This document shows positions 38,321 through 47,620 of a DNA stretch of 64,000 nt, in pieces (position 1 is the stretch's first letter; each line of letters opens with the position of its first letter). The DNA lies in contig OZ024743.1 of assembly GCA_964016885.1 (NCBI GenBank), forward strand, positions 213,900,001 through 213,964,000. The letters run 5' to 3'. The stretch is from Eledone cirrhosa. Its lineage: Eukaryota. The translations under genes and the position numbers were made by a program. The notes under the pieces are model-generated. The model was given only the letters and a program-made list of their open reading frames with translations. It did no database searches and was not told where the DNA came from.

Positions 38321-39112
38321 TAGTCAGTTCTTAGATATGCCAGCTCTGGTTTATAGTTTTGATGCTATCGGAGCCTTGGGACATATATATATATATATAT
38401 ATATATATATATATATATATCGAACCAAAAAAAAAATATATCTATATATATCGAAAAACTGTTAGTATAAAGTTACAGAGTAGTTGGATAAAACTGATGA
38501 GGAATTATGCTGGATTATGTGAAAAATATATTACAAACAAATATGTTATTTTACATATTCTTCGAGATTTATTTATCTGGAAACTTTGCAGATTTATAGA
38601 AATATACAGAAACACAAAACGCTTCAATAGCCCATTCATCTAAATACTGTTCCACTCTCTCTCTCTCTCTCTCTCTCTCTCTCTCACTCTCTCTCTCTCT
38701 CTCTCTCTCTCTCTCTCTCTCTCTCTATATATATATATATATATATATATATATATATAGTCATCCCACGCCACACCCGTAATACATATCTGTATATATA
38801 TATGTATAAATGTATATATATATATATATATATATAAATGGAATATAATGAAACGAAATTTCATTTCTCACTCTTAGTACGGCAGTTACTTAAATGTAAG
38901 TATGTATGTATACGTACATACATATATGTATACAGACATACAGTAGTATGTATATATATGCATACATGCTCACATATATATATATGCATGTATCGGTTTA
39001 CCGAACATTTATTATAATGCTCGGTTTGTTTGTAAACAAACAAACAGCCCGAATTACGCCGTACAGTTTTTAGGCAACCACGTCACCTTTTTGTTCAACA
39101 CTGACACAGGAA

Positions 39113-39153
39113 CGATGTACTAATTTCAAGCTTATTAGCTATCTTCAGCATCG
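39113..39153 (-). ncRNA. Minimal hammerhead ribozyme, family D
   Basis: cgatg CTGAAGA t agct-aata-agct t GAAA ttag TA catcg. Confidence 0.7.
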
Positions 39154-39214
39154 TATACCTTCCTGCCCGATGACATATACTTTCAGACGTTCAACCATCT
39201 GTCAGGAAGGTATA

Positions 39215-39255
39215 CGATGCTGACGATAGCTAATGAGCTAGAAACTAGTACATCG
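39215..39255 (+). ncRNA. Minimal hammerhead ribozyme, family D
   Basis: cgatg CTGACGA tagct-aatg-agcta GAAA ctag TA catcg. Confidence 0.8.
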
Positions 39256-40090
39256 TTCCTGTGTCAGTGTTGAACAAAAAGGTAACGTGTTTGCCTAAAC
39301 ACTGTACAGCTTAATTCGGGCTGTTTGTTTGTTTACAAACAAACCGAGCATTATAATAAATGTTCGGTAAACCGACACGTGCATATATATATATGTGTGC
39401 ATGTATGTATATATATACATACTACTGTACGTCTGTATACATATATGTATGTACGTAAACATACATACTTACATATATATATATGTGTGCATGTATGTAT
39501 ATATATACATACTACTGTACGTCTGTATACATATATGTATATACGTAAACATACATACTTACATATATATATATATATATATATATATATATATATATAT
39601 ATATATATATATATATATATATATATATATATATATACTTACACACACACACACATATATATATATATATATATATATATATATATATATATATATATAT
39701 ATATATATATACATACTATTCCTATTTCAGCTATTTCTTACCACATAAATACTGAACGTGACCAAATTTCATTGTAATTCCTGATGAAATCAAACGAATA
39801 AATCTGCTCTTCTGATTTGTATATGAAATAAACATGTAACGTCTCTACTAATAGTTTGAGTAACTTATTTAACTGGTGTTACTTACCGATTCCTTTCGGT
39901 AGTCTCCCTATCTCTCTTTATATATTTATACATACACACACACACACACACACACACACACACACACACACACACACACACACACATACACACACACACA
40001 CACACACACACACACACACACACACACATATAATATATATATATATATATATATATATATATATATATATATATATATATATATATATAT

Positions 40091-40278
40091 AGGAAAAGTA
40101 TGACCCCGACGGCAGAGCTCAAGCCGTTTGTACGGCTATTATTGCCAGAAATAGCCGTCGAAACGGCTTGAGCTCAGCCGTCGGGGTCATACTTTTTCCT
40201 ATTATTAATTCTACTACCCTAAGTATTGAGGACTCTGGTGCGTTATGATCCATCTGGTTCCTTACCACAACTCCTTCG
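40091..40278. mobile_element. Fold-back family A
   Basis: Hairpin 40091-40200 plus tail, within (TA)n. Confidence 0.8.
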
Positions 40279-40433
40279 ATATATATATATATATATATAT
40301 ATGTATGTATGCGCGTGTGTGTATGTGTTATATATATAAGTATGAGTATTTTTATATCTAGTGATATACGGTATGCTTACAAATAAACATTTTAAAAGCC
40401 TTCAGCCTTCAGAATTTGGAAACCGATGACGTA

Positions 40434-40447
40434 GCGCCATCTAGTTG
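40434..40447 (-). promoter_or_regulatory. Possible CTCF-type motif
   Basis: caactagatggcgc versus consensus-like CCACTAGATGGCGC (one mismatch); motif match only. Confidence 0.3.
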
Positions 40448-41640
40448 ATTCCAGCTGAAGCAAAGAGTTGGTAAATGACGGGGGCGTTGTTTCTGACTTT
40501 AGTCATTATCAAGTCAGTACTCCCTAATCCTGTTCTCTGCTGGAGCTGAATATAAGAGAAAACATAGATTTGACACTTATGTACTTGGGCTGATTAACCT
40601 CATTTGTATATAGAGTAATCGGCTGGCTCTATATGCATTTATCCATTTAAATGGACGTATTATTCTATGTATGTGTGTATGTAATTATGTATGTGTATGT
40701 ATGCATGCATGTATGGTATGTATGGACACAAGTATGTGTGTGTGTATGTATGGATATATGTAAATATGTATTAATGTGTGTATATGTATGTATGTATATA
40801 TGTATGTGTTTATATATGTATGTATGTGTGTATGTGTGTATGTATGCATGTATGCATATATGCGTGTATATGTGTATGTATGCATGCATGTATGTATGTT
40901 TTCTTAGTCTGAACAATTTTAGAATTTATATTGACCAAGTATTTGCACAGTAGAATTATTAAAGAGAACATATTCCTAATCAAGATGCATGATCTGCATC
41001 TGACCCAGAAATGTAAAGACAGAAACATTTAGCTATATATATAATATGTAATAAAAAGCAAAACATAACAGACAAAAATCCATTATGACATTTATGACAA
41101 ATATGACATTGTAACAATATAAACTATAAGATAAGAATGAATTAAAAAAAAGCGAAAAAAATAAAATAAAAACAACCCTGAAACATGTTAATATTACCTA
41201 ACAGATCTCAATTATAGAGATATGTATGAAATCGAACATTCACCAAACGCATCAGAAATATATAAGCACATTATTGAAGAAGGTGGCGAAGCTTCAAGAC
41301 AGAAAGTAAAGTCACGTAAGTAATTACATCAAGAGGTACCTTCGAGCTCTTTACTGACTGATGTATTCCATTATCTGAAGTTTGCTGATTATATTTAATA
41401 AGATACGTCTCCTATTAAAGAGTTAGATTATTAAACGGATACATTATCCCTGATAATATCAATCGTGTGGGTACGTTAGTTACGGTATAGCATCTTTCAA
41501 ATATTAGATATATTTCATTAACACATATTAACATCAAACGTATTATAGAACAATGATTATTTTTCAACAATGCAGAAGTCAGAGGGATATTGGCTTCAAT
41601 GAATATATTTATTTATAAAAGGAAATTTTAATATAATAAC

Positions 41641-41828
41641 TGTTTCTACGTTTGGCACAAGGCCAGAAATTACCCAGTACATTACTGGTACTTTATTTTA
41701 TCGACCCCGTAAGGATGAACGGAAAAGTTAACCTCGGCGGGATTTGAACTCAGATCATAAAGGGACGTAACTCTAAGCTTCAAAGCATGGTGTCCGACTC
41801 TCTACCGATACTGCCAATCCGCCGCCAC
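41641..41828 (-). mobile_element. tRNA-type SINE
   Basis: 17-bp TSD aattttaatataataac at 41624-41640 and 41829-41845. Confidence 0.92.
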
Positions 41829-41949
41829 AATTTTAATATAATAACATACATCAAACATATATCTTGATATTTTGGTAACACGCTTTATGTCTCAACACCA
41901 GCAACACGTTTTGTAGGTGTTCCTGTCTTCCCTCTGTTTATCTTCCTCA

Positions 41950-46087: not shown

Positions 46088-46132
46088 AGCTTTGATAAGC
46101 ACCAAAAAGTGCGAAACAGTGCTCTGTCAGCT
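46088..46132 (+). ncRNA. Hammerhead ribozyme, U3-A8 core variant
   Basis: agct TTGATAA gcac-caaaaa-gtgc GAAA cagtgctctg TC agct. Confidence 0.75.
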
Positions 46133-46406
46133 TTATCTCCACTGTTTGCTGAATATTGAAGTAAGTGAGACTGTCACTACTCTAAAACAATAGCGTAAGG
46201 TCTTTGAAATGCTTTTAATTAAGCATACAGTGTATTGCAAACTACACTATATATACATTCATATATATATGGCTATTTCAGAGCACCAATTCTAATTTTC
46301 AATTTGAGCTTGATAGGCAACCGCTCTGTAAAATCAGTTGCTATTTATTACTAGAATTCTATAAGAATCAAATATTCATGATTTTCAGCAAACAGGCGGA
46401 GTACTT

Positions 46407-46451
46407 AGCTTTGATAAGCACCAACAAGTGCGAAACAGAGCTCTGTCAGCT
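46407..46451 (+). ncRNA. Hammerhead ribozyme, U3-A8 core variant
   Basis: agct TTGATAA gcac-caacaa-gtgc GAAA cagagctctg TC agct. Confidence 0.8.
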
Positions 46452-46743
46452 TTATCTCCCCTGTTTGCTGAAAATTAAAATAAGTGAGACTGTTACTACT
46501 CTAAAAGAATAGCGTAAGGTCTCCGAAATGCTTTTAATTAAGTGTACTGTGTATTGCAAAATACACTATATATATATATATAAATAAATATACACGGGTG
46601 TTCATGATTGTGTATAGAAGATTATATTAATAAAAGGGATTCCAACTTTGTCTGATTTACTCGTTTTATTTATAATTCTTTAAAATTTATAATGGTATTA
46701 GAATGAAATACTATGGTAGAATATTAAATGTTAAGTGTTAATT

Positions 46744-46780
46744 GAACAAGTACTTTCATACTTTCGCAATCTTCAGGTTC
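46744..46780 (-). ncRNA. Minimal hammerhead ribozyme, family F
   Basis: gaac CTGAAGA t tgc-gaaa-gta t GAAA gtac TT gttc. Confidence 0.78.
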
Positions 46781-46838
46781 ACATTCTGTGGTGACAGACA
46801 AGATTGTAATTTTCAACTTGACTGTCACCACAGAATAG

Positions 46839-46875
46839 GAACCTGAAGATTGCGAAAGTATGAAAGGACTTGTTC
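46839..46875 (+). ncRNA. Minimal hammerhead ribozyme, family F
   Basis: gaac CTGAAGA t tgc-gaaa-gta t GAAA ggac TT gttc. Confidence 0.72.
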
Positions 46876-47098
46876 AATTAACACTTAACATTTAATATTT
46901 TACCTTACTACTTCATTCTAATACCATTATAAATTTTAAAGGATTGTAAATAAAACAAGTAAATCAGACGAAGCTGCAATTTCTATTATTAATATATATA
47001 CATACACACACACACACACACACATACAAACACACACACACATATATATATATATATATATATGTGTGTGTGTGTGTGTGTGTATGTATGTATATGTA

Positions 47099-47173
47099 GA
47101 ACCCCGACTAGCCTAAGTATTGAGTACTTTGGTGCGTAATGGTCCACCTGGTTCCTTACCACATTTCCTTCGT
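47099..47173. repeat. Family A, tail with collapsed hairpin
   Basis: gaccccgac joined to cctaagtattgagtac...ccttaccacatttccttcg. Confidence 0.7.
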
Positions 47174-47211
47174 TATATATATATATATATAAATATATAT
47201 ATATATACAAG

Positions 47212-47620
47212 TTGGAATAGAATGAAACGAAATTTCATTTCTCACTCTTAGTACGGCACTTACTCGATATGCAAATTAGGCTGCTCACCCGTTAATTTTC
47301 ATAAGGAAAGTATATACTTTCGAACGTTCAACCATCTGGCAGAAGGGTATACAGTACTGACGATAGCTAACAAGCTTGAAACTAGTACATCGTTCCTGTG
47401 TCAGTGTTGAACAAAAAGGTGACGTGGTTGCCTTAACACCGTACGGCATAAATCAGGCTGTCCGTTTGTTTACAAACGAACAAAGCGAATGTTATAATAA
47501 ATATTCGCTAAACTGATGCGTACATATATATATGTGTGCCTGTATGTATATATATATATATATATACATGCTACTGTACGTCTGTATACATATATGTATG
47601 TACGTATACATACATACTTA
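47212..47620 (+). mobile_element. Family D copy (short inverted tail + sense arm; HHR 47352-47392 with damaged stem I)
   Basis: CTGACGA tagctaacaagctt GAAA ctag TA catcg; homology to 44811-45182. Confidence 0.8.

Follow-up and report, generated by a model that had tools for sequence, protein, structure and literature searches.

A hammerhead repeat of Eledone cirrhosa inserted in the manner of Penelope-like elements: fixed ends, template strand and a possible RNA circle

How does a repeat of a few hundred base pairs that carries a hammerhead ribozyme and no open reading frame (ORF) come to lie in a genome as inverted pairs with a tail at one end only? This question is raised by 64,000 nucleotides of Eledone cirrhosa contig OZ024743.1 (assembly GCA_964016885.1, positions 213,900,001 to 213,964,000; hereafter the window), in which an earlier note, made from the letters alone, had described three copies of such a unit. 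The origin of the head-to-head layout with a one-sided tail, the strand that is copied and the use of circles as templates are left open in PMC3846280, PMC8557442, PMC11167929 and PMC7229834. We interpret the hammerhead repeat as a non-autonomous Penelope-like element (PLE), whose sense RNA would be reverse-transcribed at both cut ends of the target by a Penelope-type enzyme of another element, often from one RNA that was in part of the events likely a circle, and we give this reading a probability of about 0.7. The Penelope-like mode of insertion itself we hold with high confidence.

Fixed outer ends and variable centres

All three copies lie where the earlier note had placed them. With the unit numbered from u1, the first base past the predicted ribozyme cut, the antisense arm of each copy stops at u285-290 and the sense arm near u233, and each continues into (TA)n; we call the sense stop site A and the antisense stop, 57 nt beyond it, site B. 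Every copy opens with the tail in antisense orientation (the copy at 38838 has one mismatch to the 30-mer given in the note), and the strand switches at u392/u371 in copy 1, u217/u291 in copy 2 and u234/u317 in copy 3, in agreement with the note's description of a shared inverted tail and differing switch points. The TA/TG repeats that it saw inside the unit span approximately u130-235. The note had also reported that the start of the copy at 44292 recurs after 448 bp; this repeat is confirmed, within a copy that is chimeric. The outer monomer of copy 2 belongs to a younger variant and its inner tail and right arm to an older one, and of 33 common polymorphic sites 10 differ between the arms. 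Among the five hammerhead motifs of the three copies, those at 39215 (plus strand) and 44614 (minus) are intact, that at 39153 (minus) keeps its core and stems and has lost the stem III palindrome, that at 47352 (plus) has a broken stem I, and that at 44929 (plus) a broken core. The parts are as follows.

38782-38836, no strand: (TA)n target left of copy 1; the right flank is 39568-39715
38834-39172, minus strand: copy 1, site B arm with the tail, u392 to u290, hammerhead at 39113-39153
39175-39567, plus strand: copy 1, site A arm, u371 to u233, with a local 90-bp duplication of the TA/TG tract (39478-39567)
39215-39255, plus strand: minimal type I hammerhead, intact, predicted cut after 39250 (GUA), weak match to Rfam HH9
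44202-44290, no strand: (TA)n/(CA)n target left of copy 2; the right flank is 45182-45244
44287-44740, minus strand: copy 2, outer monomer of subfamily a, ending at site B, intact hammerhead at 44574-44614
44741-44808, minus strand: copy 2, inner tail of the older variant (the 448-bp repeat)
44810-45181, plus strand: copy 2, site A arm of the older variant, mutated hammerhead core (44929-44969)
47174-47207, no strand: (TA)n target left of copy 3; the right flank is 47627-47654
47213-47264, minus strand: copy 3, arm consisting of the tail only (site B back to site A)
47258-47626, plus strand: copy 3, site A arm, u317 to u233, hammerhead at 47352-47392 with broken stem I

The flanks of the three copies have only other dispersed repeats in common, at positions that do not match. 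Segmental duplication, which the note had named as the finding that would overturn its view, is therefore ruled out, and the three copies stand as independent insertions.

The unit, 446-540 nt long, is abundant in the 3.0-Gb genome, where an exact 19-base motif occurs 17,904 times and an exact 22-base motif 23,168 times; these counts are lower bounds on the number of monomers, and reversed-pattern controls gave 0 matches for both. Twenty-two monomers delimited from cut to cut measure 426-538 nt, close on themselves and split into subfamily a (~446 nt) and subfamily b (464-538 nt, with an expanding TA run), beside which the older variant is also present.

The comparison of fixed outer ends with variable inversion points, proposed in the earlier note, was run on 143 distinct elements, 109 from motif lists along contig 1 and 34 others (one that ran off its locus was dropped). 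Head-to-head insertions with their 3' ends outward account for 82 of them, one has the reverse layout and 60 are single-arm, several of these last hiding a short tail arm. The outer ends of the 82 are A/B in 62 cases, A/A in three and B/B in none, with 17 unclassifiable, while the inner switch points vary. Seen from the tail side, 73 of 107 terminal tails have an inverted partner, which ends at A in 59 cases, at B in one and elsewhere in 13; we read the lone B partner as two chained neighbouring copies. Both sites end with a motif resembling (C/A)ATTTA or ACTTA, which merges into the TA of the target, and site A falls within a predicted hairpin loop.

The target is equally constrained, 98 of 105 terminal tails running into (TA)4 or (TC)6, compared with 12% of random 35-mers from the window. 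A target duplication is clear in one case (12 bp, locus L087) among the 20 of 62 insertions whose flanks are impure. At the centre, 73 junctions comprise 23 with an overlap of 1-4 bases, four that abut, 31 with a gap and 15 with a longer overlap. Inner ends are in excess in the TA tract (26 of 107), which we did not use, because it largely reflects alignments stopping at expansions, nested inserts and inversion centres.

An inverted 5'-truncated copy, a one-sided tail, a (TA)n target and a short duplication where one is visible are features of PLE insertions, and they support the note's view of a non-autonomous, independently inserted element. Endonuclease-bearing PLEs likewise form partial tandems with an inverted 5'-truncated copy and a tail at one end, favour (TA)n and carry a hammerhead in their repeat (PMC8557442, PMC3846280), and non-autonomous derivatives have been described for Chlamys (same sources). 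The unit studied here differs in that it has no ORF and closes on itself, in that its tail is ~57 nt rather than 30-40, and in that no sequence link to a coding family was found in 80 coding loci.

One A end and one B end per insertion, 57 nt apart, with variable inner ends, is what is observed. In vitro work on Poseidon of Anolis carolinensis (PMC11167929) suggests how this may arise: two internal start sites, one of them at a stem-loop, bound the tail, which is the stretch between them; both strands of an AT-rich target are cut and extended, and the start sites are the same for both strands and have no homology to the target. By analogy, A and B would be internal starts of reverse transcription, each nicked target strand priming at one of them, and the two cDNAs would stop variably and then join end to end, often through 1-4 shared bases. 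Unlike Poseidon, the hammerhead unit uses one of each site per insertion, and both of its sites end in 2-4 bases that match TA. The layout also recalls twin priming of L1, in which two target ends are primed on one RNA, the two cDNAs cover adjacent parts and the inversion is joined by microhomology. The cDNAs of the hammerhead unit, unlike those of L1, overlap by hundreds of bases.

Strand, source and form of the template

The ribozyme cut is crossed by 87 of the 143 classified arms, and 130 of 132 crossings are seamless. Inner ends are not gathered at the cut either (5 of 143 arms, 3.8 expected), all of which argues for a multimer or a circle as template rather than a monomer read once. Tandem monomers of one insertion differ at 1.1% of common polymorphic sites (95 pairs, 29 insertions) and opposite arms at 2.7% (51 pairs, 33 insertions), compared with 20.4% between insertions, which indicates that the parts of one insertion come from one source.

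Two of 108 insertions are outliers in A-to-G changes on the hammerhead strand, with A-to-G to T-to-C ratios of 10:0 and 9:1. A motif with a double A-to-G change has 50 matches in 42 loci genome-wide, compared with 0 for a double T-to-C control that consists of one pair of T sites. Forty of the 42 loci were covered; one failed a filter and L169 was left out, and in the 38 analysed the sites not used for selection hold 105 A-to-G and 28 T-to-C changes. In our reading, these clusters may represent ADAR editing that was copied into DNA. Being confined to one strand, they strongly suggest that the hammerhead (sense) strand is the template. A heavily edited locus, L230 (C3:73.84 Mb), shows 25 further A-to-G and five T-to-C changes, two of them in the hammerhead.

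If the marks are edits, they act as barcodes of single RNAs. In 21 contiguous insertions with at least two passes, chosen by hand from the edited loci, 37 of 66 A-to-G changes at unselected sites recur between passes, compared with 18 of 115 other rare variants, and different edited loci have 78 of 581 A-to-G changes (13%) in common. Unselected A-to-G changes are shared between tandem passes in L169, L229, L287 and L290, and between opposite arms in L169, L111, L256, L269, L284, L288 and L290, and partly in L278. For L169 and L111, the two loci checked genome-wide, the edits are private: the double change of L169 occurs three times in the genome, all within that locus (one inverted arm and two tandem passes), and the change pair of L111 twice, in its own two arms.

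Since the same private A-to-G changes reappear from one tandem pass to the next and no scar marks the crossing of the cut, a self-cleaved and ligated monomer circle may have been the template in a good share of events, a view that we favour slightly, with multimeric transcripts or two RNAs in the others. Repeated copying of one RNA, likely a circle in part of the events, is suggested for many insertions; for such elements this step had so far been only a proposal. The full statement, that one hammerhead-made RNA circle was reverse-transcribed repeatedly from two fixed starts, one per target strand, as recorded by editing marks, is tentative and falls just short of even odds.

Several observations weigh against these interpretations. 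As many as 29 of the 66 A-to-G changes are confined to one pass; tandem passes share none in L272, L278, L282 and L300, nor do opposite arms in L277, L294 and L301. The two sites by which the loci were selected are hotspots or mark a small sub-lineage and are not diagnostic, and the Fisher P of 3e-8 is too strong because sites within one insertion are not independent. If two primers strictly collided on a single molecule, long B arms should pile up at site A, and they do not (7 of 69, 5.6 expected). Copy 2 combines arms of two variants, and no coding partner turned up in the 80 coding loci. In vitro, minimal hammerheads are poor cleavers (PMC4209133), and the RNA used by the Anolis element was uncleaved (PMC11167929). 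Simplest would be a mixed reading: a good part of the events recopy one stretch of RNA, likely a circle, and the others draw on multimers or two RNAs.

What this analysis tested in particular is how often an insertion pairs an A end with a B end, and whether tandem passes have edits in common. We found no paper on this hammerhead family or on edited genomic PLE copies, although supplements and curated repeat libraries may hold the family.

Competing accounts and the internal TA tract

In one alternative, every insertion is copied from a linear multimeric transcript of a tandem source array, no circle is involved and the hammerhead is a mere inheritance. A uniform source array would likewise account for seamless crossings and for uniformity within insertions, the four tandem and three inverted cases without shared edits are as expected from it, and the Anolis element needed no cleavage in vitro (PMC11167929). 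What makes this account unlikely is the recurrence of private edits in tandem passes (L169, L229, L287, L290), the lack of a source for the L169 pattern elsewhere in the assembly, and the 13% of edits common to different edited loci.

Repeated private edits would be explained equally well by one linear self-cleaved monomer that is re-read as a pseudo rolling circle, the enzyme jumping from the 5' end of the RNA to its 3' end, and L004 indeed lacks four bases just past the cut. Such jumps are difficult to reconcile with 130 scar-free crossings among 132 and with inner ends that do not pile up at the cut, and we consider them improbable.

The earlier note had further inferred that the element disperses its own potential target sequence. 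The internal tract does expand, with a pure (TA)n of at least 20 nt in 50 of the 73 tracts of subfamily b and in 18 of the 157 of subfamily a, and it receives other families, as seen in four of six loci picked as suspect (L010, L034, L051, L100). In its strong form, in which the element spreads by inserting into landing sites that it has itself provided, the idea might also draw on copy 2 and L111, which resemble one copy joined onto or into another. Self-insertion was not found: the tail directly after a subfamily-b tract has 0 matches genome-wide, for a narrow pattern of one end and one orientation with a gap of 8-38 nt. Free (TA)n is already dense, with dozens in the window, and the strong form appears quite improbable. 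Coding PLEs of the same genome have TA/TG-rich 3' regions as well, so the tract is not special to the hammerhead unit. It is best seen as a passive target, probably a by-product that other families use. One guest, at 2941-4115 of L100, is another hammerhead unit (~285 nt) in at least three tandem copies with an inverted arm, inside the internal (TA)n; this second ribozyme is built alike but differs in stem II and in the palindrome.

Variants shared by the parts of an insertion could also have been made at the DNA level after insertion, by fold-back copying, gene conversion between arms or tandem duplication. Copy 1 does contain a local 90-bp duplication, and in L111 the sharing ends part-way along the arms and includes five variants other than A-to-G. 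As most other rare variants of the same insertions are unshared (97 of 115) and three passes on both strands agree in L169, L288 and L290, this origin is very improbable. Self-priming on an antisense template, published as a hypothesis for junction palindromes and intron retention (PMC3846280), has scarcely any credibility for the head-to-head layout of this family and seems already largely refuted, since in both arms it is the hammerhead strand that carries the A-to-G changes (50 versus 0, with the control of one T-site pair, and 105 versus 28).

The ribozyme unit, possible enzyme donors and neighbouring elements

The note's description of a minimal hammerhead holds: the motif fits the minimal PLE type with a palindromic helix III, and two of the window motifs are intact, as given above. 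A short helix I, an unpaired base before stem II and a small palindromic helix III are common to it and to the minimal PLE hammerheads of PMC4209133, which cleave weakly in vitro; we see no difference of note, the motif here being predicted from sequence. Among copies that had not been picked by that motif, the core is intact in 88 of 101, and core and stems in 71. One stem I pair is A-U in 55 copies, U-G in 26 and G-U in 26 (107 of 114 copies), which represents three subfamily states and not many separate events. One monomer folds better than all of 100 shuffles (z -5.1); co-folding of two hammerheads did not yield the dimer form and was uninformative. The only Rfam match on the hammerhead is HH9, below threshold (15.7 bits, E 0.14), and a scan of the whole window gave only low-complexity matches of miRNA type among the 150 listed of 271.

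The unit holds no ORF, the sole listed frame over the window copies being low-complexity, and thus lacks the reverse transcriptase and GIY-YIG ORF of an autonomous PLE. As in animal non-LTR retrozymes (PMC7229834; bioRxiv 10.64898/2026.07.22.740005), the unit occurs as tandem monomers a few hundred bases long that lack an ORF and each carry a type I hammerhead. For retrozymes, mobilisation by PLEs and a circular template have been proposed (same sources), the circle being a hypothesis in the Discussion of PMC7229834 and still so in the preprint. The family described here, in contrast to retrozymes, consists mostly of dispersed inverted insertions of 1-2 monomers, and its motif matches the minimal Penelope-type hammerhead rather than the canonical form with loop-loop contacts; its template evidence is at the DNA level, with circles and cleavage predicted. 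We therefore describe it as a retrozyme-like, non-autonomous element of Penelope type, that is, a known layout on a retrozyme-like unit, its membership of the retrozymes being putative.

The family itself is of an expected kind and is of value as a test system, because its more than 20,000 monomers, some of them naturally barcoded, make the questions of PLE strand, layout and circle countable in one genome. It also spreads hammerheads and an expandable (TA)n that other elements enter, which bears on the growth of TA-rich clusters. If true, the circle reading would be direct genomic evidence for the circular intermediate proposed for animal retrozymes, and would also support a sense-strand template for PLEs and the rule of one start site of each kind.

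A coding PLE with matching ends, for which the note had suggested a search, was not found among 80 ORF loci of approximately eight families, the genome holding far more. These loci comprise 30 of a Hydra-type family of the window, 30 with GIY-YIG (at least two of them read on the wrong strand) and 20 further ones, and a profile search over them returned only ordinary neighbouring copies and low-complexity matches. Three DNA contig sets of one sample, with 154 repeat letters skipped, had no loose end toward a coding partner among those listed, and a cross-comparison of the upstream flanks of single-arm copies gave no recurrent extension among those listed.

Elements of Hydra and Neptune type are candidate donors of the enzyme. 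Both clades are linked to microsatellite targets (PMC8557442), and Neptune-like families are present in the genome. The Hydra-clade family of the window is the leading candidate for a trans-acting enzyme, though it shares no sequence with the hammerhead unit. Its window insertion (29945-38195, ORF part 32944-34563) has a two-end inverted layout. The family is young and very abundant, with 112,899 candidates at first look and 96-100% identity among the best 80; L132 has a full frame of 828 aa with RWR, DKT, CxCX5C, CxxC and CxH motifs as in PMC8557442. An inverted pair with its own hammerhead at 46567-47052 is the 3' end of a second coding family (L220, L237, L238, L240, L243 and L244), which also shows two ends and which we read as probably Neptune-like from its C-terminal GIY-YIG and CxxxxCxxC linker.

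The window contains further hammerhead families, at 43859-44208, 25796 and 52334, one of which is an inverted pair; the motif at 25796 follows GIY-YIG fragments at 24285-25503. LINE-type reverse transcriptase frames (RVT_1 in 4029-6554) and a gag-like frame that has no Pfam match occur at 3137-9266 and 800-1873. Other short inverted or tandem repeat families abut (TA)n at 40091-40200, 43345-43592, 45750-45870 and 46020-46590, and their ends recur beside copies elsewhere.

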